The notes under the pieces: generated by a model | What the model was told of the DNA's origin: nothing | Database searches by the model: none | What the model saw: the letters and a program-made list of their open reading frames with translations, nothing else | Made by a program: the position numbers and the translations under genes | Origin: an uncultured archaeon | Lineage (GTDB): Archaea; Aenigmatarchaeota; Aenigmatarchaeia; CG10238-14; SCSR01 | Direction: 5' to 3' | DNA: 64,000 nucleotides | NCBI GenBank assembly: GCA_964372485.1 | Contig: CAYJQI010000001.1 | Coordinates: forward strand, 707,829 to 771,828 | In this document: piece after piece, positions 3,399-56,045 of the stretch | How positions within the stretch are numbered: the stretch's first letter is position 1 | Layout of the letters: each line of letters begins with the position of its first letter

Positions 3399-3956
3399 TT
3401 ATCTTACAACTTCTATCTTCAACACACCATCTTTGAACTCATTGTTAACTTGTGCATCAGAAGGAATAGGAATTAATTTGAAGTAAGCCTTGTCTCCTGC
3501 AAAAGCCTTGACCTCCATACTTTGATCCAGTTGTTTAATTTCAATATCTTCCAAGCTTTTCACGTTGGGAAGATTCAAAGTTATAACTTGTTTGTTGTGT
3601 GTTTTGTAGATTTTTGTTTCAGGTTCTTCTGTACTTTTTGGTATACGAACAGGTTTTTCCGGGCGTTTATGTTCATGATGAACGTGTTTGTGTTCTCCAA
3701 AGGCTTGGACATTAATTTTTGGCGGGGATGTATTATCAGAAGTTATAGTTATGCTAACTCCCTTCGCTTTGACTGGTTGTCGGATGTATTTAGGCATCTT
3801 CATTTCCATCATGCGATCGATATGACGCATTTCTTTATCAATTTCTTGTAATGGGTCTCTTCTAGATTCTTTCAAAGGAAATCCACAATTAGAACAAAAT
3901 GACCATTCTTCCTTAACCTTGGTGTCACAATTTCTACACTTTTTTGACCAGAACAT
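3399..3956 (-). CDS. Zinc-ribbon protein with a C-terminal Hsp20/alpha-crystallin-like domain
   Basis: N-terminus has CRNC...CSNC (zinc ribbon). The C-terminus QVITLNLPNVKSLEDIEIKQLDQSMEVKAFAGDKAYFKLIPIPSDAQVNNEFKDGVLKIEV resembles the ACD beta-sandwich, including the terminal nGvL.i motif. Confidence 0.55.
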   Translation of the reverse strand: MFWSKKCRNCDTKVKEEWSFCSNCGFPLKESRRDPLQEIDKEMRHIDRMMEMKMPKYIRQPVKAKGVSITITSDNTSPPKINVQAFGEHKHVHHEHKRPEKPVRIPKSTEEPETKIYKTHNKQVITLNLPNVKSLEDIEIKQLDQSMEVKAFAGDKAYFKLIPIPSDAQVNNEFKDGVLKIEVVR

Positions 3957-3994
3957 TCTATCTAATAGAATATGGTATTTTAAAAAGATAAGGT

Positions 3995-15005: not shown

Positions 15006-16253
15006 TTATCGTTTGGATTTTATCTTTTCCCTGATTTTCTCAAGCATGTCTACTCTGCTTTTTATCATCGTATTTTGCTTGTACGTTGATCGGTCTTTAA
15101 CTCTTTGTCGTATTTTTATCAGAACGAATATTAAAGCTGGCACACTAAGTGAAATTAAGACATATTTTATAATATTAAAGGCATTACTATCCACTATAGG
15201 TGTCAATACCGCCAACGGCGTAACTTCCAATGTAGATATTTGCCTTTCTAAAACTTCTTCGGCTGCGGCTGTCATTCGGATTTCGTATATTTTTGGCTCT
15301 GCATCTGTTGGAATTGTTATATTAGCTACAAAAACAACTTTCTGATTAGGCGATACTTCGAGTATTGAAGAGGGTGTAGATTTTTGCCATTCTAGAGGTA
15401 TTCTCTGGATAACAAATTTCAAATCGGTTATCTTCTGATTTCCGACGTTGGTCACTTCCACCGGGAAACTGAAACTTTCTCCTGGCTTCAATGTTATTTT
15501 TTCTGGGGCATCTACTGTCAAGTGGATGAAGGAACTGTTTACAAAAAATTGACTGATTGAAGATACCCAAGTTCTATTAAACACTATGATACTGGCTTGA
15601 ACTGTATACAATCCTTCCTGATCACATGTTTGTAAACTTAGAAGCCGTTCCGAATGTTCTTCCGCAGGCATAAAAATAGTCAGGCTCTGTGTGAGAACTT
15701 TATCTGGACAATTTACAGATACTTGGATTTCTATGTCAGAACCTTTAATGCCCATATTTTCCAAAATTACTTTTGTCGGTAATAGAAGACCAGGACGTAC
15801 CCGTGATGTCAGCGGTTCTACTATTATATCGAATGGGCCAAGAGTGCTTACAGAATTAAAATTAAGCAATGATGTATCGAATAGTTCGAACTTTACTTTA
15901 TCGTAAAGTTTGACTACAATTTCATGCTCTCCTATATCTTGAGGTGTAAATTTAGGCGTAAGAAATAGTCCTTTCTCTTTATCGAGATTAAAAGTAAATT
16001 CTTCATCACTAATAATTTTTCCTTCTTTGATGATTTGCACTTGTAATAAATAACCCCGTGATACATTGCTTGGATTTTCAACGCCAATTGAGAGAGTAAG
16101 ATCTTCCAAAGCAACAGGTTCTTCTGGGGAATATGTTAGATGATATATTTCTCCATTATTATCCGCAAATGCAGGTGATAACATCAACAATAGTGAGAAG
16201 AATAATGGCCAAATAATTTTCATGATTATTCTTTGGGTTTCCATATTATTCAC
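15006..16253 (-). CDS. Secreted, C-terminally anchored surface protein with NEW3/COG1470-like beta-sandwich domains
   Basis: Signal peptide. It has a repeated module of the P.eW.....p..l.v.p.....v...i.iP.da..g.Y.i type (IPLEWQKSTPSSILEVSPNQKVVFVANITIPTDAEPKIYEI). C-terminal TM segment plus a basic tail. Confidence 0.7.
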   Translation of the reverse strand: MNNMETQRIIMKIIWPLFFSLLLMLSPAFADNNGEIYHLTYSPEEPVALEDLTLSIGVENPSNVSRGYLLQVQIIKEGKIISDEEFTFNLDKEKGLFLTPKFTPQDIGEHEIVVKLYDKVKFELFDTSLLNFNSVSTLGPFDIIVEPLTSRVRPGLLLPTKVILENMGIKGSDIEIQVSVNCPDKVLTQSLTIFMPAEEHSERLLSLQTCDQEGLYTVQASIIVFNRTWVSSISQFFVNSSFIHLTVDAPEKITLKPGESFSFPVEVTNVGNQKITDLKFVIQRIPLEWQKSTPSSILEVSPNQKVVFVANITIPTDAEPKIYEIRMTAAAEEVLERQISTLEVTPLAVLTPIVDSNAFNIIKYVLISLSVPALIFVLIKIRQRVKDRSTYKQNTMIKSRVDMLEKIREKIKSKR

Positions 16254-19200
16254 TCTGTTTTATTTTCGATATTACATATCTTAATCTGGCGGCAACTGGC
16301 CTTTCGGTTCTTCTGGATTTGATGAGGTATATAATTCCAATGGCAATTGCTCCTCCGATTATGAATATTACAATGGTGAAGATAATTGACCTTTTACTCA
16401 CATTGAAGACAACTTCCTTTATGTAGAAATCTTCATCCCAATCGATTATCATATCTGCTATATATGATCCTATCACTGCATCATCTGGAACTGCTATTGA
16501 GAACAAAAATTCCTTCTTTTCACCTGGAGATACGTCAGCTGATATAGTTTCTGGAGACATCTTCCATCCGCTCGGTAGTCTTATGGATATTCCCAATTTC
16601 TTAGTTTCACTGCCTGTATTTTCAACCACTATCTTTCCTATTGTGCTCCTACCTTCCTTCAATGACGGAATTGTGAACTCTACTAATTTGAATCCAGTTG
16701 GGAATTTGCTTTCGATTATACTGAGTTCTCTAATTGGGAAATAAATATATGGTGTAAACTCATCGAGTATTTTATTGACGGAATAAGATAATGATCTGGA
16801 ACTTCCTACAACAAGATCTTCTATTGACCATTCGACTATAGGATCATCTTGGATAATTTGATCTGGATATGGTGCAAATTCAATTTCTTTAACACTCTGC
16901 GCAAGAATTTTTGGAACTTCTTCAGTTACTTCAATAAGTGATCTATTGATATCAGTTGGGTTAGATACTATTAATTCAACAGTAGTTTTGTTTGTGGTAT
17001 AGTCCAAACTAATTTCACGAGTAACAATTGGTCTATCTCCTAATTGTTCAACATTTTTGATTCTAAGCATGAAAAATACTGAAGCTTCAGCAACTGAATT
17101 TTTAACATTTATGAATACACTTCTATCTCCAATTTGTGTATTTTCAGGGACCGTGATGCTTATGGTAAATCCTCCTGTACTTCCTGGACTTAGATCTAAA
17201 CTGTCTGGAGTTACGAATATCCATTCCTTTGGAATGCCTGTTACATCTACTTTTAGATCAGTTAAAGTTTCTGATAAAATATTCTTTACTATAATACCTT
17301 CCACAACACTATTGCCTGATTGCACTCCTTTCAATATAGGGAATTTGACAAATTCAATTCCTTTTGATGGTAGTTTAGTAATTGGAGTATCCGGAACTGA
17401 AGATACTGAACCGGGTGATGATGAAGGACTTGGAGACGGGGACGGTGAAGGGGATGGCGATGGACTTGGAGATGGTGTTCCTATTGATACAACTTTATCT
17501 ACTAAATCCGAAAATGAGAAGGCTTGTGATATTATTCTTGTTATAGCTACAAATCTAGCAGCCAATTCATTGAGAGAAAATGCATTTCTAATTTGTATTG
17601 TCAAACTTTGAATTCTTGTTGGAATGTCTGTAAGTTCAATAGCATTAGTTGTTAGTCTAACACGAGTGAAAATATTTGTTATATTATCTAATATGCTCAA
17701 AGCTTGAGTTATCGCTCGGGAAAATACTTGAGATAAACTATTTATTGCTTTTTCTGATAGAAAGATTGGGTTTGTTGTTGTCCTAGGAATGGTTGAGAAT
17801 CTGCTAACTATTTCTTCCAAGTTAATTGCGCTAATAAATGAACGGGTGAATAATAGTAAACGAGTGAATGAGTCCGTAAGATCTATGGCGTTTGTAATAG
17901 ATCTCATTCTTATCATAAGAGCTTGTACATTGTCTGATATATCCAACGCTTGTAATATTACACTAGAAATCACGTGAGATGCAATGCTACGTACTTGTTC
18001 TGTTAAATCGATTGCGGTGGTAATAGATCTTGGAATTAATGAGAATCTACTCACAGCATCTGTTAGGTCGATTGCATTAGTAAAGCTCCTTATAAGTAAT
18101 TGTAATCTTGATGTAGTTTCTGCAAAATTTATTGCATTAGTTACCAATCTCATTCTTGATATAAGAACATTTATATTATCTGTGAGATCGAATGAATTTA
18201 TTATAGTTCTAGGTATTATTCTAATTCTTTCTACAAGTTCTGTTAAATCCATTCCGTTAGTGAAATTCCTAGTAAGTTTTAACATTCTTGTAAAAGTATC
18301 ATTTACATCAATCGCATTAATAAGTAATCTTGCACGAGAAACAAGATTTTGAAGATTATCGGACATATTGAATGCTTGAGTTACAGATTGGAAGAATGTT
18401 TGTTCTGTACCAGAAGATGTTCTATCAAATAATGTAATTCCGTTGGTGAAGAACCTAATTAATGACTGCATACGGCTAAGTGTTTCAGTAAAGTCAATGG
18501 AATTGATAATAAACCTTACCCGTAGAATAAGATTTTGAAAGTTATCTGTGATGTCTAAATTTTGAATTGTCTGTCTTAATCGAGTTAGTGAGGAATTTAA
18601 GTTATCTGTGATGTCAAGTGAAATAGTAACTCTTTTAATTAATGACTGTATTCTACTAAATGTCTCGGTTAGATCTATTGCATTTGTAATGAATCTTGCA
18701 CGTGTGAAGAGATTTGCTATTGTATCTGTTATGTCAAGAGATTGTGTGGTCTGCTTCATCCTAATTACAAATGCTTGAAATGTGTCATTGAGATCTATTG
18801 CATTAGTAAAGTTTCTAAAGAGTAATAATGTTCTCGGGAACACATCGGAAATATCTATTGAATTCACAATAAACATTGTTCGGGTGGATAGATTGCGAAC
18901 CGAGTCCGTAAGATCTATGGCGTTTGTAATAGATCTCATTCTTATAATAAATTTCTGTATTGTATCTGTGAGATCGAACGATTGGGTGATTAGTCTAACT
19001 CGTGTTAATATACTTCCCATTGTATCTGTGATGTCAAGTGATTGTGTTATTTGGCGCAGTCTGATTAACGGAGATGTGATTAATTCGGTGAGATCGAATG
19101 AATTAATGAATGAGCGCGTAAACGAAGCCGTCCGTGCAAAATTCTCTGTTAGGTCAATCGGTAATGTTACAAATTGGGTAATTAGAGGAAGTGTTATCTC

Positions 19201-20628
19201 TGTCTCTAGTCTATCGTTTAGACCTATTGATTGAGTAAACAGACGGGTGAGGGATTGTAATCTGCTTATAGATTCTGTGAGATCTATTTCATTTGTAATG
19301 AATCTTGCACGTGTGAAGAGATTGCGTATATTATCTGATATATCCAACGCTTGCAGTATAGTTTTGGGTAATGTCCTGAACATATCTGACATATCGGTTA
19401 AATCCAATGATTGGGTGAAGAAACGCTTGAGGGATTGTAAAAGACTGTAAGAATCTGACAAGTCGATTGATTGGGTGATTAGTCTAACTCGTGTTAGTAT
19501 ACTGCTTATAGATTCTGTGAGATCTATGGATTGTAAAGTCTGTATTATTCTGGTAAATGGCGGTGATTTGGATTCAGTCAGATCTAGAGATTGGATGAAG
19601 AAACGGATAAGAGATTGTAATCGGCCTAAGGTTTCGGTAAGATCGGTTGATTGAATTAAAAGTCTTACCCTTGTAAGGAATGTTGATATGCTATCAGTCA
19701 GATCCAAGGACTGGGTAAAGAATTTTACCAAAGAATTTTGAAATCCTCGGATTGCTGTTAATGTCAATGAATTTGTCAATTGTATGCCAGAAAATTGGAT
19801 TTTCGGCGAGTTTCCTGTGAAGAGAAACGCTTCTAATATGTCAACGTTAGTTGTTTGTATTGATGGTGTGATTGTGACAGAGACGTTTGCATTGCCAGTG
19901 AATGTAATAGATTGTCCAAGTCTTTGAAAGAGATTTAAAATTTTAATTACATTATCTGTCAATGATATCGATTGTCTAATTTCAACCGGAGACCAGTTTA
20001 CTGTAAGATTTATCCAATCTACGCCACATCCTTCAGAACCTTCTTGATTAACTCCCATGACTAAGATTGTCACATTTTTTGTATGACCAACATATTTAAC
20101 TACTTCTGAATTTGTAGTAATGTTAAATCTCTCGGTTGTTTCAGTTGTAAGTGGTTGAGTTGTACTAATATTTACCCAACTATTGCCTGTCGTATTTGCA
20201 AGATAAGTTGTACAAACTTCACCCGCATCATTTGTGCTGGCACCCTTGACTTCAACATATACAGTCATCCAATTGATAGTGCTTGCAGATTCATTTATTG
20301 TGAAATTGAAACGCATCCAAGGATCATCATTGGTAGCAGTTGAATTTGCCCAGCACCATACATCGTTAGAAGTTGCCAGATATCTATAACACATAGCACT
20401 ACCATTAGAACCAACCCATCCTTCTGTAAATGCAGGTGGTGGAGAAATGTCAGTGGTATTGAAAGTAAACACATTTTTCTTTGTCGAAGGATTCATTCCG
20501 CTGGAATTGCTAAAGTTATAATAAGTCTCGTATATTACTGCTGCTTCAACTTCTACAGAAATTAAAGTAAGTATAGCGATGAATGCCAATAATATGATTA
20601 ATTTTTTCATTTTATCAACCTTAGCCAT
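16246..20628 (-). CDS. Giant (1460 aa) secreted surface protein with five parts: an N-terminal beta-rich module, about 41 tandem 20-residue repeats, a (Pro-Ser)n linker, NEW3-like domains and a C-terminal TM anchor
   Basis: Signal peptide MKKLIILLAFIAILTLISVEVEA and many NxS/T sequons. The repeat consensus is about [SA][IL]D[LI]T[DE]xxxxxxRxRxI[TI][NQ]. The linker is PSPSPSPSPSPSPSPSSSP. Two P.[GE]W modules are present, and the C-terminal helix is IIFTIVIFIIGGAIAIGIIYLI. Confidence 0.85.
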   Translation of the reverse strand: MAKVDKMKKLIILLAFIAILTLISVEVEAAVIYETYYNFSNSSGMNPSTKKNVFTFNTTDISPPPAFTEGWVGSNGSAMCYRYLATSNDVWCWANSTATNDDPWMRFNFTINESASTINWMTVYVEVKGASTNDAGEVCTTYLANTTGNSWVNISTTQPLTTETTERFNITTNSEVVKYVGHTKNVTILVMGVNQEGSEGCGVDWINLTVNWSPVEIRQSISLTDNVIKILNLFQRLGQSITFTGNANVSVTITPSIQTTNVDILEAFLFTGNSPKIQFSGIQLTNSLTLTAIRGFQNSLVKFFTQSLDLTDSISTFLTRVRLLIQSTDLTETLGRLQSLIRFFIQSLDLTESKSPPFTRIIQTLQSIDLTESISSILTRVRLITQSIDLSDSYSLLQSLKRFFTQSLDLTDMSDMFRTLPKTILQALDISDNIRNLFTRARFITNEIDLTESISRLQSLTRLFTQSIGLNDRLETEITLPLITQFVTLPIDLTENFARTASFTRSFINSFDLTELITSPLIRLRQITQSLDITDTMGSILTRVRLITQSFDLTDTIQKFIIRMRSITNAIDLTDSVRNLSTRTMFIVNSIDISDVFPRTLLLFRNFTNAIDLNDTFQAFVIRMKQTTQSLDITDTIANLFTRARFITNAIDLTETFSRIQSLIKRVTISLDITDNLNSSLTRLRQTIQNLDITDNFQNLILRVRFIINSIDFTETLSRMQSLIRFFTNGITLFDRTSSGTEQTFFQSVTQAFNMSDNLQNLVSRARLLINAIDVNDTFTRMLKLTRNFTNGMDLTELVERIRIIPRTIINSFDLTDNINVLISRMRLVTNAINFAETTSRLQLLIRSFTNAIDLTDAVSRFSLIPRSITTAIDLTEQVRSIASHVISSVILQALDISDNVQALMIRMRSITNAIDLTDSFTRLLLFTRSFISAINLEEIVSRFSTIPRTTTNPIFLSEKAINSLSQVFSRAITQALSILDNITNIFTRVRLTTNAIELTDIPTRIQSLTIQIRNAFSLNELAARFVAITRIISQAFSFSDLVDKVVSIGTPSPSPSPSPSPSPSPSPSSSPGSVSSVPDTPITKLPSKGIEFVKFPILKGVQSGNSVVEGIIVKNILSETLTDLKVDVTGIPKEWIFVTPDSLDLSPGSTGGFTISITVPENTQIGDRSVFINVKNSVAEASVFFMLRIKNVEQLGDRPIVTREISLDYTTNKTTVELIVSNPTDINRSLIEVTEEVPKILAQSVKEIEFAPYPDQIIQDDPIVEWSIEDLVVGSSRSLSYSVNKILDEFTPYIYFPIRELSIIESKFPTGFKLVEFTIPSLKEGRSTIGKIVVENTGSETKKLGISIRLPSGWKMSPETISADVSPGEKKEFLFSIAVPDDAVIGSYIADMIIDWDEDFYIKEVVFNVSKRSIIFTIVIFIIGGAIAIGIIYLIKSRRTERPVAARLRYVISKIKQSE
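17488..19977 (-). repeat. Coding tandem repeat array, 60-nt (20-codon) period, about 41 diverged copies
   Basis: Protein residues ~218-1047 can be cut into consecutive 20-mers. Examples are SLDLTDSISTFLTRVRLLIQ, STDLTETLGRLQSLIRFFIQ and SIDLTESISSILTRVRLITQ. A few units are 24-30 aa. Confidence 0.8.
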
Positions 20629-26809: not shown

Positions 26810-27880
26810 ATGTTTTATAAATCCGTACCTTTAAATCTAAAAATTAGAATACCTAATTATTTAATCGGATTAGTAGATGAAACAGACGGAAAAGGAAATT
26901 CTCTCTATATTACTGGTGCATCTGAATTTATTGAAAATATTTGGAACGAAATAACAGAAAAGAATAGAAAATTAAATGTTAGGCAATTGATTCCAAAAAT
27001 ATTTGGTGTTACCACCGCCACATTTTATTCGTATAGAACAGGTAAAAAATCCATTTCCATTCAAAATCTCTATAACTTAATTAAGCTTTGGGCGGAAATC
27101 TGCAACAAAAAATTTAATGAGTTGGAAGAAAAATGGAACGAATTTTATTTAAGCTATGATTATTATTTTGTAACACACAATAAATGTCAAAAAGTCAGAC
27201 TGCCAAGGCAAATTACTCCGAATTTATCCTACTTAATAGGATGGTTGTGTGGTGATGGGCACTTTAAGCAATCACATAATTATATAGTTAAAATAAGTGA
27301 AAAATCACAAAGTCAATTGAAACAAGTATTAAAACCATTAATCAAAGAGTTGTTTGGAATCGATGTACCTATTTTCAGACGTTATATGAATGGTTATGCG
27401 ATACAATTTGGATCAAAATCAATCTATCGTTTCTTTAAAAAGATTCTAAAGATTAATGTTGGTGAAATACCCGACTTTATAAAAAGTTTAGACAAAATAA
27501 ATAAACGTTATTTTTTAATGGGTGTTTTTGATTCAGAAGGATGTGTGCTCAGAAGTAGAAATAGGATATCCATCGCTCAATCCAAGAAAGACTTTCTTAT
27601 ACAAATTATGAAACTAATGGAAGAGTTGGGAGTTCGGTTTCAAAAACCTACATTTCATAAAACTAAATTGGGAGAGTGGTACAGTATTAGACTTGGTTCT
27701 AAGAAAGATTTTATAGCATTTTCAGAAAGAGTTGGTTCTTACCATGTAGATAAAAAGATTCTCTTGCAAAAATGGGTTGATAAAATTAAGAATGGGGGGG
27801 ATTACCAATTTCTCCTAACTCTTTCTTTCAATCCAAACATGAATAATGTCCCAAGCAAAATTAAAACTGAACATATATAG
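26810..27880 (+). CDS. Free-standing double-motif LAGLIDADG homing-endonuclease-like protein with an N-terminal HTH
   Basis: LAGLIDADG motifs are LSYLIGWLCGDGHF and KRYFLMGVFDSEGCV. The N-terminal HTH-like unit is VTTATFYSYRTGKKSISIQNLYNLIKLW. Confidence 0.8.
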   Translation: MFYKSVPLNLKIRIPNYLIGLVDETDGKGNSLYITGASEFIENIWNEITEKNRKLNVRQLIPKIFGVTTATFYSYRTGKKSISIQNLYNLIKLWAEICNKKFNELEEKWNEFYLSYDYYFVTHNKCQKVRLPRQITPNLSYLIGWLCGDGHFKQSHNYIVKISEKSQSQLKQVLKPLIKELFGIDVPIFRRYMNGYAIQFGSKSIYRFFKKILKINVGEIPDFIKSLDKINKRYFLMGVFDSEGCVLRSRNRISIAQSKKDFLIQIMKLMEELGVRFQKPTFHKTKLGEWYSIRLGSKKDFIAFSERVGSYHVDKKILLQKWVDKIKNGGDYQFLLTLSFNPNMNNVPSKIKTEHI

Positions 27881-30121: not shown

Positions 30122-30421
30122 TTATGTTGTTATCCAAACTTTTCCAATTATCAAATCTTTTGTTATTGGTCCAAAATGCCTACTATCTTGACTGAAACCT
30201 TTGTTGTCACCAACAACATAAATTTCATTTGAATTTGTTATTACGGATATGCGTTTTATAAGAAATTTGTCTTTTTCTTTCGGATGTTTCAATACAATGA
30301 CATCTCCTTTCGAAGGTTTACCAAAAACATACGCGAGTTTATTCACAAGAACATAATCACCGGATTTGAATGAAGGTTCCATACTTTTATCTGCGATCTT
30401 GAATCGTGATATAGGAAACAT
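30122..30421 (-). CDS. sodX: SodX-like S26-family (bacterial LepB-type Ser/Lys) maturation peptidase for NiSOD
   Basis: The Ser box is DKSMEPSFKSGDYVLV, the Lys box is LIKRI, and GDN...S.DSR is present. It has only 99 aa and no TM segment. It sits immediately downstream of sodN, as in Streptomyces and cyanobacteria. Confidence 0.75.
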   Translation of the reverse strand: MFPISRFKIADKSMEPSFKSGDYVLVNKLAYVFGKPSKGDVIVLKHPKEKDKFLIKRISVITNSNEIYVVGDNKGFSQDSRHFGPITKDLIIGKVWITT

Positions 30422-30424
30422 AAG

Positions 30425-30913
30425 CTACTTCTTTGAAATTGGATATATTGTTTCCTTTTCTGTAGGATAAGGTGCTTTGAATCTTGCTGTCCCGAAACCT
30501 TTAGTCTCCCAAAATATTTCTGCGATTTCATTCACAGCTTCTAAAAGCTCATCTGCAGCTTGCATGTTAACTTCCTGTCTAGCTTTCGAAGCAAGTTTCA
30601 TAATTTTCCATACAAGCTCATGTAAATCAGGATAATCTTTCAAGTGTTCTTGTTTAAAGTAATCTCCCCACAAAATTCTAATTTCATGTTTGCATAATTC
30701 AGCATGTTCATCCTTCACTTTTGCATATCTCGCGATCTTATGAGGATCTTCTTTAGCATCTTCAATCAATTTCGTCATTCTTATCACGGTATGCGCGGCC
30801 ATTTGTGCAATGTGGGGGTCGTATATACCGCATGGAATATCGCAGTGAGCATATGCAATTCTCGCAGGAAATATTCTGTCTAATAATTTGAATGTTAAAT
30901 GAATTAGATTCAT
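30425..30913 (-). CDS. sodN: Nickel-containing superoxide dismutase precursor
   Basis: The Ni-hook HCDIPCGIYDP (consensus HCxxPCGxY) is preceded by a 22-aa leader ending ...IAYA. A four-helix-bundle-length C-terminus follows. Confidence 0.88.
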   Translation of the reverse strand: MNLIHLTFKLLDRIFPARIAYAHCDIPCGIYDPHIAQMAAHTVIRMTKLIEDAKEDPHKIARYAKVKDEHAELCKHEIRILWGDYFKQEHLKDYPDLHELVWKIMKLASKARQEVNMQAADELLEAVNEIAEIFWETKGFGTARFKAPYPTEKETIYPISKK

Positions 30914-30971: not shown

Positions 30972-31985
30972 TTAGTTTGGATGTGTTACCATGCACAATA
31001 TATCCGAACCACCCTTGAAGCATTCTTTCGATATTCTCTCTCTCCCTCTAAATGTCAATGTATAGAGATTTAGTTTTCTCCCGAATAATCGTACATTATT
31101 TTTTCTTGGAAGTTTGTGATGATAGAATATTCTAAACCCTAGCAACTTAACTCCATTATGCAACGCAATAATTTTAGATTTATTCGGATGCAATTCAAGT
31201 TTCAATTTCTGCTTCAAGAAATTACCAATTAGCCATTTGTATAACAAAAGTTTGCCTTTAGATCTGTGTAAGATAACAAAATCATCGACATACCGGATAT
31301 AATATTTTGCCTTAAGATTATGTTTGATGTAATAATCCAATTCATTTAGATACACATTAGCAAAGAACTGACTCGTAAGATTTCCAAGAGGCATACCTTT
31401 TCCTTTAATTTTGAAAGTGTGGTTGTCCAAAATTATTTTTATTACCCGAAGAAATTTTTCATCCTTTATCTTCTTTCTTATTACATTCATTAGGATTTCT
31501 ATATCCACTGTATCGAAATAATGTTTTATGTCTGCTTTTAATGCGTAACCAACAATCACATTTTTGTCTTGAAATTTATGAAGCAATTCACCGTTTCTGG
31601 TAACTTTTCTTTTGAAATAGTCAAACCTTTTTAATCCAACATGCGTCCCTTTATTTTTTCTGTTTGCGTAGCTATCATATATGAAAGTCTTCTCAAATAT
31701 TGGTTCGATTATATTGCAAACAGCATGATGTATTACACGATCTCTAAAATCTGAAGCATGGATTACTCTTGTTTTTGGATCGCGTATTATGAATCTCTTG
31801 AGTGGAGATGGATTGTAAATTTGTGTTTCTAATTCTCTCTTTAATTTTCTTATTTCATTGTGCAAATTTGATTCGAACTCTTGAACATACCATTTCTTTG
31901 ATTTGCCTTTCTTCGCTTTCTTGAAAGCTAATAAAAGATTTTCTAATGAACAAAGCTGAATAAAAATATTATCATATGTTTTCAT
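30972..31985 (-). CDS. Diversity-generating retroelement (DGR) reverse transcriptase
   Basis: The RT motifs include IRYVDDFVIL (YxDD). The DGR-typical block is MPLGNLTSQFFANVYLNELD, an [ILV]GxxxSQ where group II intron RTs have QGxxxSP. The N-terminus LENLLLAFKKAKKGK...FRDRVIHHAV resembles other DGR RTs. The adjacent TR/VR pair supports the call. The ATG at 31985 is preferred over the track GTG at 31994. Confidence 0.88.
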   Translation of the reverse strand: MKTYDNIFIQLCSLENLLLAFKKAKKGKSKKWYVQEFESNLHNEIRKLKRELETQIYNPSPLKRFIIRDPKTRVIHASDFRDRVIHHAVCNIIEPIFEKTFIYDSYANRKNKGTHVGLKRFDYFKRKVTRNGELLHKFQDKNVIVGYALKADIKHYFDTVDIEILMNVIRKKIKDEKFLRVIKIILDNHTFKIKGKGMPLGNLTSQFFANVYLNELDYYIKHNLKAKYYIRYVDDFVILHRSKGKLLLYKWLIGNFLKQKLKLELHPNKSKIIALHNGVKLLGFRIFYHHKLPRKNNVRLFGRKLNLYTLTFRGRERISKECFKGGSDILCMVTHPN

Positions 31986-32018
31986 AAAAATCACGGTAGT
32001 GCCACATCCCAGGTTATT

Positions 32019-32176
32019 GGGCGGAAACCAAGACCCGTAATATCGTCTCTAAAGGATTTCGAATTCGATGGCCTCCTGTTCGCATTTACGCCAAGCAACA
32101 TCTTGTTCGCGTTGAATCGCCTTTCACTTTTTCTGCAATCGTGGGGATTCAAGTTCCAATTGCCACGAATGACAGC
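32019..32176 (-). repeat. DGR template repeat (TR), 158 nt
   Basis: It aligns to 32494-32597 with identity at every non-adenine position (coding strand). It is A-rich, with AAT/AAC codons. It shares the A-free 3' segment GGTCTTGGTTTCCGCCC with the VR and lies 33 nt upstream of the RT start. Confidence 0.85.
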
Positions 32177-32381
32177 TAATTTAGCCTAATCCACCAAGTT
32201 TTCACTGAAGCTTCAGGTTTCACACTAGTCACATCTGTTCATTCATCATTGTTACTATCTGTCGCCTCTGTATTTCATGGCTAAACGGGAAAAAAGTTGT
32301 TTAATGCACTATGGACAGGCGTGTAGCCTGGGACTGATGAGCAGACTACCGTAAGTAGAATTTAGTGAAACAGAATAATAA

Positions 32382-33113
32382 CTATTGTTTTCCGAGTAAT
32401 TTACCTAAAGTTTTATAGAGGACTTCTGCTTCCTCTCTAGGAATTTTAACAAAATCAGTTTCATTTCCGTTTTCGATCAGTCCTCGTCTCGCAGGGCGGA
32501 AACCAAGACCCGCAGACGAAACCGACGGCCCCCCGTTCGCAACCGCGCCGAATCGCCCAACGCGGGGACCCAAGCCCCAATCGCCACGAAAGACAGGCCT
32601 TAAACCTTCACAATAATTAAAATCAGAATTACTCCATATATAAGCATCTTCAATTAATCCTAATTCAGGTATGTGGTTTCGTAATCTTCCATCACTTTTT
32701 GGAAAAGTAGGCAGCTCAACTCTTTCACCACCATCGATTAAATAATTTCCATTTCTTGTATCTACAAAAGAACCCTCTATTAAAACAGGAACTTTGCCTT
32801 GTTTCACTTTTGGATTTAATTGCGGAGAATAACTCCCATCTTTGTTAGGCCAAGCTATTAAACTATCCGTCCATTCTGCAGGACCGCTGATCATATCTCT
32901 TTCTATATCAAGATGATTCTTTTCAAAGTAAGCTCTTGCAGCAGACCACTCTTTGCTCGTAGGAATCACTAAACCTCTTTCCTGAACCCATTGTTTTGCA
33001 GCATACCAAGTTATATCAACGATAGGACGACCATCAGTAAGAGCCTTCGTAGTGGCAACATAAAGATTTAATTCAGGAACTTGTTTGTAATTCAATTCAG
33101 TTGCGGTTACCAT
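32382..33113 (-). CDS. DGR variable (target) protein, FGE-sulfatase / C-type-lectin fold
   Basis: ITWYAAKQWVQERGLVIPTSKEWSAA matches the FGE-type v.w.eA..y..w.g.rLPTe.EW..AA pattern. The C-terminal scaffold FRGDWGLGPRVGRFGAVANGGPSVSSAGLGFRPA keeps RGxxW-7x-R-8x-P-7x-GFR spacing. It contains the VR. Confidence 0.85.
   Translation of the reverse strand: MVTATELNYKQVPELNLYVATTKALTDGRPIVDITWYAAKQWVQERGLVIPTSKEWSAARAYFEKNHLDIERDMISGPAEWTDSLIAWPNKDGSYSPQLNPKVKQGKVPVLIEGSFVDTRNGNYLIDGGERVELPTFPKSDGRLRNHIPELGLIEDAYIWSNSDFNYCEGLRPVFRGDWGLGPRVGRFGAVANGGPSVSSAGLGFRPARRGLIENGNETDFVKIPREEAEVLYKTLGKLLGKQ
32494..32597 (-). repeat. DGR variable repeat (VR), 104 nt
   Basis: It has 23 differences from the TR, all at TR adenines: aat->gat, aac->ggc, aat->ggt, cac->cgc and so on. 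It is locally GC-rich as a consequence. Confidence 0.85.
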
Positions 33114-54887: not shown

Positions 54888-56045
54888 ATGCGGGAACACC
54901 TGAAATTGTTTTCTTTGGGTGGATTATTAATAATTCTGGCTACAGTTGTTTTGGCAGCCTCATTATCTAATTCGCCTTCAGCATGTAGCGGTCAGTGGAC
55001 AAATTGTTCAAATGCATTCGGTGATAATTCCAACAGGGCAACTGCTTCTGTAACAGCATCCGCAAATAAGAGTGGTATATGGAATAATTATGGATTTTCT
55101 GTAGCAGATAGCGCATCGATAGACCAAGTTGTTATAAGGGCTGATTTCTTTGCAAGCAAAACAAATGGTTATATTAATGTTAGAGTTAGTGGAGATGGTG
55201 GTGCAACTTTCGGTCCATCTCATGTGGTTGGTGGAAATACAGCTGAACAAACTTTCAACATAGATGTGACCAATGACTTGGCATGGACATCATCTAAACT
55301 TAACAATTCAAACCTTCGAGTGAATGTAACTTGTTTCAAGCAGGGAAGTGGAAGCAATCCAACATGCAATCTAGATTGGCTACCAATAAATGTTACTTAT
55401 ACGTCATTTGATTTTTCAGTTTCTGCAAGTCCAAGCAGCGATACCATTGTGCAAGGTGAAAGTGCAGAATCTAACATAACAGTTACTTTACTTGGTGGGG
55501 TTTCTCAAAATGTAGCACTTTCGGTAGAAGGATGTCCTACTAATGCAATATGTAATCTCAATCCTTCATCTGGATCTCCAACTTACACATCTGTATTTAC
55601 AGTTATTACAAATGCATCGACACCTTTAGGAACGCATTTAATTAATGTTTCCGGAACTGGAGATGGTCTTACAAGAAAAACTAGTTTTACATTAACTATT
55701 AATGAAGATTGCACAAGAGCCAATCCAACAGTTTTAATATCACCAGATACACAGGATGCATCAGCTGGTTCACAATTAAACTACACTACTGAAGTGACAA
55801 ATAATGACTCAAACGGTTGTGGATCTTCAGTATTCAGTTTGACAAGAACTATTCCATCGGGATGGACGGGAACATTTCTCTCCAATTCATTAACAATAAG
55901 TCCAGGTAGCTCTGCGTCAACTACATTCATGTTAACATCTTTATCAAATTCAACAGCAGGAGATTACAACTTCAACAACACAGCAACTAATTCAAACTCA
56001 TCTTCATTCAAGTCAAGTGATTCGGCTGTATATCACGTAAATTAA
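54888..56045 (+). CDS. Secreted Ser/Thr/Asn-rich surface protein with beta-sandwich modules
   Basis: It has a signal peptide and many NxS/T sequons. Its N-terminal module ends CNLDWLPINVTY, like the N-module of the giant protein (CGVDWINLTVNW). Confidence 0.6.
   Translation: MREHLKLFSLGGLLIILATVVLAASLSNSPSACSGQWTNCSNAFGDNSNRATASVTASANKSGIWNNYGFSVADSASIDQVVIRADFFASKTNGYINVRVSGDGGATFGPSHVVGGNTAEQTFNIDVTNDLAWTSSKLNNSNLRVNVTCFKQGSGSNPTCNLDWLPINVTYTSFDFSVSASPSSDTIVQGESAESNITVTLLGGVSQNVALSVEGCPTNAICNLNPSSGSPTYTSVFTVITNASTPLGTHLINVSGTGDGLTRKTSFTLTINEDCTRANPTVLISPDTQDASAGSQLNYTTEVTNNDSNGCGSSVFSLTRTIPSGWTGTFLSNSLTISPGSSASTTFMLTSLSNSTAGDYNFNNTATNSNSSSFKSSDSAVYHVN

Follow-up and report, generated by a model that had tools for sequence, protein, structure and literature searches.

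Diversity-generating retroelements (DGRs) usually carry a template repeat (TR) and a variable repeat (VR) that are colinear and equal in length, although this is not strictly defining, and an accessory gene (avd) beside the TR is common among them but not universal. Guo et al. 2008 reportedly engineered a self-splicing group I intron into the Bordetella TR and found it precisely missing from the VR after homing, a result that is said to have been taken as proof of an RNA intermediate. Length differences between TR and VR have been ascribed to slippage of the reverse transcriptase (RT) at AAC repeats, with about 7% of DGRs carrying indels, and introns are not mentioned in that work (Wu et al. 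2017, PMC5758913). Archaeal introns of the bulge-helix-bulge (BHB) type are defined by a motif at the exon-intron boundary in which a 4-bp helix lies between two 3-nt bulges (PMC6379350). Moreover, structured RNA motifs named RT have been described in the vicinity of RT genes, possibly as parts of retrons or DGRs (Weinberg et al. 2017, PMC5737381). In the searchable literature we found no link between DGRs and BHB motifs or a splicing endonuclease; subscription journals might hold an earlier description. TR introns go unmentioned in the archaeal DGR paper, in the large DGR surveys and in the review. A natural retroelement template that would pass through the host tRNA-splicing machinery, as we propose here, has not been described as far as we found.

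We analyzed a stretch of 64 kb, in the following called the window, from a DPANN (Aenigmarchaeota-like) archaeon. Its minus strand contains a compact DGR at positions 30972..33113 (Table 1). The DGR is flanked by archaeal housekeeping genes, i.e., L19e/L18/S5/L30/L15/SecY, aRF1, GINS, primase, PCNA and Cbf5, and its neighbours are genes for a DUF475/TerC membrane protein and Ni-SOD. As in the canonical DGR of Bordetella phage BPP-1 (mtd/TR/brt), a target gene with a VR at its 3' end is followed by the TR and then by the RT gene, and VR and TR differ in an adenine-specific manner. DGR target genes typically encode a C-type-lectin/FGE fold. The target gene continues for about 37 codons beyond the VR. 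Its product matched the FGE-sulfatase family of Pfam weakly and short of the cut-off (PF03781, E=0.0014), found no match in a PDB sequence search and is the only member of its 90% cluster. The VR peptide motif RGDW..R..P..GFR (RGxxW..GFR) is visible in the translation, and counting from the translation confirmed the spacing W-7x-R-8x-P-7x-GFR given in an earlier sequence-only reading of this DNA. Between target gene and TR we found no ORF of at least 50 aa, be it avd or an equivalent.

Table 1. Features of the DGR in the window. Exons and introns are those predicted for the TR RNA; ^ marks the predicted cut.
Feature	Position	Strand	Length	Description
DGR target gene	32382..33113	-	243 aa	ORF; VR near 3' end
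Variable repeat (VR)	32494..32596	-	103 nt	colinear with spliced TR; adenine-tolerant alignment
RT-16 RNA motif (Rfam RF03019)	32176..32345	-	170 nt	75.2 bits, gathering score 50
Template repeat (TR)	32019..32175	-	157 nt unspliced	four exons, 38+16+28+21 = 103 nt; three introns
TR intron 1 (TGCAGAAAAAGTGAA)	32123..32137	-	15 nt	CACG AT^T gcagaaaa AGTG AA^A; relaxed BHB, hBH type
TR intron 2 (ACAAGATGTTGCTTGGCGTAA)	32086..32106	-	21 nt	ACGC GA^A [CAAG atgttg CTTG] GCGT AA^A; canonical BHB
TR intron 3 (ATCCTTTAGAGACGATAT)	32040..32057	-	18 nt	TTCG AA^A tc-ctttaga-ga CGAT AT^T; degenerate BHB
DGR reverse transcriptase	30972..31985	-	337 aa from ATG at 31985	RVT_1 E=2.4e-20

We found 7662 homologues of the RT; of the nearest ones, those with a name belong to Aenigmarchaeota and other DPANN archaea. 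Its best match of solved structure was 8ub7_A, a 328-aa reverse transcriptase (E=2.3e-45) of the same length as the BPP-1 brt coding sequence, and this match ranked far above retron and group II RTs in the PDB search. A tblastn search with the window RT recovered phage DGR RTs, BPP-1 brt included, and the sequence LGNLTSQ presumably represents the DGR hallmark [I/L]GxxxSQ. The 3' end of the RT-16 motif directly abuts the first base of the TR, in the window as well as in 18 of 20 related loci. As the motif stops exactly there, we conclude that RT-16 is the 5' module of the DGR RNA, i.e., the conserved structured 5' part of this non-coding RNA.

We compared TR and VR in an adenine-tolerant alignment with affine gaps, where a TR adenine may pair with any VR base. 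This reproduced the initial observation that the TR exceeds the VR by 54 nt, contained in three TR-only blocks of 15, 21 and 18 nt; there were no VR-only gaps. The lengths of 158 nt (TR) and 104 nt (VR) given in the sequence-only reading are correct as aligned. In that register, 23 of the 27 TR adenines were changed over 104 aligned positions (15 to G, 7 to T and 1 to C), and the sole non-adenine difference was the first base. The true homology hence starts at 32175/32596 and covers 157 and 103 nt; in the register preferred here (Table 1), 21 of 25 TR adenines are changed. Over these 103 nt the statement that only adenine positions mismatch holds without exception; it fails for the first base of the 104. 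As DNA, TR and VR are thus not colinear (157 versus 103 nt), and their lengths would be equal only for the predicted spliced RNA. The 3' 16-mer GGTCTTGGTTTCCGCC occurs in the window only in its TR and VR copies (0.19 expected), and additional VR or TR copies were not found within the 64 kb.

Because TR adenines match any VR base, the block boundaries are ambiguous by a few nucleotides. The boundaries chosen at first (32126-32140, 32087-32107 and 32039-32056) are compatible with the VR but lie 1-3 nt off the register that suits the VR and also yields a BHB fold (Table 1). This offset explains why no convincing BHB junctions had been recognized by eye; the geometry appears once the boundaries are shifted by 1-3 nt. 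The length of each block is a multiple of 3, as had been noted, and none of the three interrupts the VR frame with a stop.

The three blocks, in the following called introns, differ in how closely they approach a canonical BHB. Intron 2 satisfies the strict criterion with a 4-bp central helix and two 3-nt bulges, and its central helix and inner hairpin are present in the minimum-free-energy (MFE) fold, a check that had been proposed for the blocks. Homologues at this site were found in L005, L006, L007, L009, L021, L081 and L086. Intron 1 forms three of four central pairs (3 bp central helix), lacks an inner stem and has its 5' site in a loop; it has a canonical AAA 3' bulge and a long outer helix (TGAATCCC/GGcGATTCA). 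At the same site, L001-L004 and L085 carry homologous strict BHBs (CACG AG^A .. CGTG AA^A). Intron 3 also forms three of four central pairs, with an inner stem of 2 bp, and is absent from the MFE fold; the related locus L159 has a perfect TTCG/CGAA BHB at this site with the same flanks.

We collected 160 loci with related RTs from genomes and metagenomes, i.e., 161 with the window, and compared the region upstream of the RT with the rest of each locus in the same alignment, using three overlapping search intervals for the TR. A convincing TR/VR pair was obtained in 103 of the 161 loci (window counted). TR-only blocks of at least 10 nt were present in 42 of these 103 related DPANN-archaeal DGRs, 65 blocks in total, and VR-only blocks of at least 10 nt in none of them. 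We excluded L133, where the 18-nt block is probably an artefact of the alignment end. The block statistics are based on 64 unique blocks. Blocks are 13-57 nt in size and never located at AAC repeats. With TR-only blocks recurring in 42 of 103 loci, three independent VR deletions, which had been judged unlikely from the start, or a mis-paired TR cannot explain the data. The recurrence also speaks against a second TR or VR elsewhere in the genome, another of the options raised initially, as do the loci L023 and L108 described below.

The same pipeline was applied to 12 annotated phage DGRs and 45 distant viral-contig DGRs as controls, and it recovered the annotated TR and VR of BPP-1. Among the 11 TR/VR pairs obtained from the 12 phage DGRs none had a TR-only block (0/11), and the viral-contig DGRs contained no such blocks (0/45) and only indels of 3-6 nt. 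Overall, TR-only blocks were found in 0 of 56 DGRs outside the clade. Small indels of 3-9 nt in either direction were also seen at A-rich repeats in L027, L037, L044, L063, L077, L129, L132 and L144.

We placed the RTs in a rough neighbour-joining tree. The 23 tips around the window all have one to three introns, located at three sites that recur. Introns are almost absent from a large clade whose TRs are AAC-rich, and in a third clade a CTCG intron, 16 nt away from the end of the TR, occurs patchily. Intronless relatives carry the exact spliced sequence at the intron site; L076, for example, equals spliced L159. All block-positive loci fall in one RT clade, so that an RT property is not fully separable from a host property.

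The blocks share a common layout, i.e., a 4-nt strand, two bulge nucleotides, the cut, one bulge nucleotide, a hairpin, the complementary 4-nt strand, two bulge nucleotides, the cut and one further bulge nucleotide. Examples from relatives are CAGG AA^A..CCTG AA^C, CTCG AA^A..CGAG AC^C and TGCG AA^A..CGCA AA^T. For each block, we used the register with the best helix among the shifts allowed by A-only mismatches, and nulls were handled identically. All four central pairs formed in 52 of 64 blocks, and 51 of the 64 unique blocks combined the 4/4 central helix with an inner stem of 2 bp or more. Shuffled and randomly placed blocks reached means of 0.6 and 1.8, respectively, and the highest counts among 1000 replicates were 3 and 9. 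Across the blocks the helix was built from 31 distinct sequence pairs. When 62 blocks were aligned in register (MAFFT with constant anchors), the central helix was 95.6% paired and the inner hairpin (h') 90.7%, compared with 30-39% in controls with partners slid by 1-3 columns. The covariation score was 0.817 versus 0.195 in shuffles, none of 500 reaching 0.817. Splicing of the TR RNA, one of the options listed in the sequence-only reading, is hence supported by BHB geometry in the window and in 60-odd blocks of relatives. The outer exon-exon helix (h) was paired to 48.4%, near background, and given this weak outer helix the clade motif is of the relaxed HBh' type. Relaxed HBh' motifs are described as being cut by some endonuclease classes only (PMC5829648). 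Intron 1 of the window shows the reverse of the clade pattern, with a strong h and no h'.

The VR junctions also define the cut positions. In 42 of 42 informative blocks, i.e., those with C, G or T as the third nucleotide of the 3' bulge, this nucleotide recurs as the VR base that follows the junction, which places the 3' cut directly before bulge nucleotide 3. A cut one position later would make the post-junction base A-templated, and it would hence vary. Once the 3' cut is known, the block length fixes the 5' cut at the same offset. Offsets of at most 1 nt from the helix fit 37 of 63 blocks (26 incompatible), and offsets of at least 4 nt fit 32 of 63 (31 incompatible). Both predicted cuts are located after the second bulge nucleotide, as expected for archaeal splicing endonuclease; EndA cleavage at this point follows from the textbook numbering of the canonical tRNA 37/38 intron. 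In 62 of 63 blocks the intron starts with A, and we know of no such constraint for BHB introns.

From these features of the repeats we consider it quite probable that host enzymes BHB-splice the TR RNA ahead of mutagenic reverse transcription and that introns are occasionally retained. The locus would be transcribed into a single non-coding RNA that comprises first the RT-16 element and then the TR. EndA, the tRNA-splicing endonuclease of the host, would then cut past the second nucleotide of each 3-nt bulge beside the 4-bp helix, and the host ligase RtcB would seal the exons. The DGR reverse transcriptase would copy the 103-nt spliced template with adenine-specific errors, and the cDNA would take the place of the VR. 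EndA and RtcB as the acting enzymes, and removal at the RNA level before reverse transcription, are what we infer from the geometry. Neither EndA nor RtcB was found among the scanned window ORFs of at least 100 aa (about 55 of 61). To our knowledge, both are universal in archaea, and we assume their presence in this genome on these grounds. In the related Aenigmarchaeota locus L035, we observed a tRNA gene with insertions of 30 nt and 41 nt relative to the Rfam model, which fit a lineage with multiple tRNA introns. ARAGORN, in a run that was apparently not intron-aware, found no intron-bearing tRNAs.

Two loci contain both block forms. In L023, a single TR (3871-3976) is accompanied by two VRs in paralogous genes. 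VR2 (3518-3601) is without an 18-nt block, and the missing segment fits the BHB register; VR1 (990-1092) keeps the block, with adenine changes inside it. L108 likewise has one TR and two VRs, one block-containing and one block-less, and neither locus contains a third repeat copy. In L034, L042 and L100, the block is absent from both VRs. It appears that a spliced and an unspliced template can both be copied, which places the removal between TR DNA and VR DNA. Judged from these repeats, removal appears to be facultative, and copying of the unspliced template would add an in-frame peptide insert to the VR.

Block lengths point in the same direction. Multiples of 3 account for 42 of 64 blocks (binomial p=1.6e-7, ignoring shared ancestry), i.e., the in-frame lengths remarked upon in the window reflect a bias throughout the clade but not a rule. 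We counted stop codons in block interiors only, since the ends CCTGAA/CGTGAA give rise to TGA in one control frame. Of 364 codons in the VR frame, 9 were stops, versus 61 of 741 in the other two frames; for multiple-of-3 blocks the counts were 4 of 242 and 40 of 496, respectively (Fisher p=4e-4). This in-frame bias is consistent with occasional retention. BHB-like motifs in the colinear parts of the TRs were not enriched (14 versus 15.9 in shuffles), which suggests that retention is rare apart from the homologous cases L023 and L108.

Template-jumping, another of the options listed initially, is the rival that survives best, and we keep it as an unlikely one. Here, the RT itself would skip the blocks by jumping structured hairpins of an unspliced template, and no endonuclease would be involved. 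Stable hairpins are indeed present in blocks, and a stochastic jump would agree both with removal that is not obligatory and with a feature restricted to one RT clade, but the junctions fit less well. They are strand-asymmetric, i.e., the deletion retains the 5' strand of the 4-bp helix and loses the 3' strand, and both lie exactly 2 nt 3' of each strand, which is the two-fold symmetric signature of BHB cleavage rather than that of jumping where a stem begins. The 15-nt blocks, moreover, have almost no hairpin, and many intronless members exist in the same RT clade.

We regard it as very improbable that a full-length cDNA is made and the blocks disappear only from DNA, in integration or repair of looped VR heteroduplexes. 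The VR is replaced via homology on both sides, and loops of 15-57 nt might be resolvable toward the recipient strand, but such loss would leave unexplained the BHB geometry and covariation of the blocks, the fixed junction position and the absence of blocks from the phage (11) and viral-contig (45) DGRs. Hardly credible is, finally, a fossil or mis-pairing, with three TR insertions or VR deletions after the last homing or a block-less TR elsewhere, as had also been considered: although the inspected 64 kb belong to a 791-kb contig and window introns 1 and 3 are slightly degenerate, this is countered by zero non-A mismatches over 103 nt, by the TR-only pattern repeated each time in 42 related loci, by a TR that, as in relatives, adjoins the RT gene and the conserved RT-16 element, and by L023 and L108, where one TR gives both forms and the locus contains no further copy.

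If the TR RNA is spliced before reverse transcription, as we favour, the introns may serve in VR length diversification or in protection of the TR from self-homing, or they may persist neutrally. More tentatively, and with rather more doubt than confidence, we suggest that DPANN archaeal DGRs have two layers of diversification, adenine mutagenesis and facultative BHB splicing, with introns as optional in-frame cassettes. The window TR with its introns of 15, 21 and 18 nt could then write up to eight VR length isoforms in addition to sequence variants. Judging by the one-TR/two-VR loci and the in-frame bias, the choice between splicing and retention may vary the length of the binding surface; these findings also raise the question of how the TR escapes overwriting. 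The introns would render TR DNA non-colinear with the cDNA and could thereby shield the template against this.

DGRs and BHB introns are individually well known, and their combination would represent a new substrate class. It would add a third class of non-tRNA, non-rRNA substrate for archaeal EndA. As each VR would preserve the spliced RNA permanently in the form of cDNA, metagenomes of uncultured organisms could reveal the splice sites. DGR detection tools that assume colinearity may truncate or miss about 40% of the DGRs of this clade.

Compared with the DGR of BPP-1, which it resembles in gene order, the window differs in a TR with three excisable blocks that is not colinear with the VR, in the lack of avd between target gene and TR, in the RT-16 element 5' of the TR and in its DPANN host. 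Relative to the description of RT-16 (PMC5737381), the motif is here tied to a DGR and ends at the first base of the TR. The small indels in some DPANN loci and in the viral-contig controls resemble the slippage class of Wu et al. (PMC5758913), whereas the blocks described here are 13-57 nt long, TR-only, structured and away from AAC repeats.

With archaeal BHB introns of pre-tRNA, pre-rRNA and cbf5 pre-mRNA, which are processed by EndA/RtcB, the TR introns share the 4-bp helix, the two 3-nt bulges and the inner hairpin. They are likewise small (here 13-57 nt), occur several per RNA and include relaxed hBH/HBh' variants (PMC6379350). In contrast, the substrate here would be the template RNA of a retroelement whose spliced product is read as VR DNA, removal appears facultative and lengths are biased toward in-frame, stop-free blocks. 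The intron of Guo et al. was an artificial ribozyme in a bacterium; those of the window clade are natural, conserved and up to three per TR, and we propose that they are protein-spliced. If this is true, nature would repeat the intron-in-TR experiment that is said to have proved the RNA intermediate.

The end of the Rfam motif RT-16 RNA coincides exactly with the first TR base, both in the minus-strand DGR of the window and in 18 of the 20 related loci (L001–L007, L010, L011, L013, L014, L016, L022, L028, L032, L035, L046 and L070; L-numbers denote fetched loci encoding related RTs). From this coincidence of boundaries, RT-16 appears to serve, within the window's clade, as the 5′ module of the template RNA of the DGR. 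RT-16 is an orphan motif whose description (PMC5737381) is limited to its proximity to RT genes.

The TR-only blocks, which we read as bulge-helix-bulge (BHB) introns of this RNA, were compared across 41 loci. Their length is biased, being a multiple of three in 42 of 64 blocks, and stop codons in the VR frame are avoided inside them. Of 63 blocks, 62 have A as the first intron nucleotide, and the first nucleotide of the 3′ bulge was always A. At two related loci, L023 and L108, a single TR serves two VRs, one of which has kept the BHB block, with its adenines mutagenised, while the other lacks it. The L108 block has 17 nt in the TR compared with 18 nt in the block-keeping VR and also shows non-A differences, which suggests that this VR copy may no longer be updated.

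CRSA is a piece of the FGE/C-type-lectin VR motif. Translated in the VR frame, the blocks at site 1, the position of TR intron 1 (window 32123–32137, and the homologous blocks of L001–L004 and L085), yield CRKSE, NMCRE, NVCRE and similar peptides that resemble this piece. The site-1 intron may hence have been a coding segment of the template that was turned into an intron.

At the 3′ end of the TR/VR pairs, GGAATA in the TR is set against GGGGTA in the VR, and this was repeated across many relatives (e.g., L010, L012, L022, L028 and L076). Judged from the aligned pairs, the AA-to-GG change looks like a fixed difference and not like random mutagenesis; it may be an IMH/IMH*-like directionality mark of the clade. 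The window is an exception, as homology stops at ..CCGCCC, after which the TR reads AATAAC and the VR reads TGCGAG.

Features of the window and of related DGR loci
Feature	Locus	Position	Strand	Remarks
RT-16 RNA motif (Rfam)	window	32176–32345	minus	adjoins TR
356-aa ORF	window	26810–27880	plus	LAGLIDADG_3 and homing-endonuclease domains
1460-aa ORF	window	16246–20628	minus	C-terminal NPCBM-associated domain
Two other NPCBM_assoc proteins	window	15006–16244; 54888–56045
Nickel superoxide dismutase gene and small S26/S24 peptidase-like gene	window	30122–30913	minus
Two VRs	L023	990–1092; 3518–3601		paralogous target genes, single TR
Two VRs	L108	1479–1581; 689–772		paralogous target genes, single TR
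tRNA genes with insertions	L035	7731–7872; 7500–7603		neighbours of related DGR

Compared with the Rfam tRNA model, one tRNA gene beside the related DGR of L035 carries two insertions, one in the D-loop region (30 nt) and one in the anticodon loop (41 nt), and a second gene carries a single insertion of roughly 30 nt; the insertions probably represent multiple tRNA introns. Within the window, the nickel superoxide dismutase gene and the adjoining peptidase-like gene lie directly downstream of the RT, and the peptidase-like protein may be the maturation protease of the dismutase. This pairing is perhaps unexpected in a DPANN genome. The LAGLIDADG_3 ORF is located shortly upstream of the cluster of ribosomal protein genes L19e/L18/S5; it may be intron-borne, the remnant of an intein or a free-standing gene. 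The 1460-aa ORF contains many internal repeats at 17.6–19.7 kb, with spacings mostly in multiples of 60 nt; its product and the two other NPCBM_assoc proteins are probably surface proteins.

Outside the clade, a sizeable difference in TR and VR lengths was found only in the DGR of Burkholderia phage vB_E192a (L168), which has a 12-nt insertion. In contrast to the clade DGRs, the difference there runs in the opposite direction, the extra sequence being present in the VR only and not in the TR.
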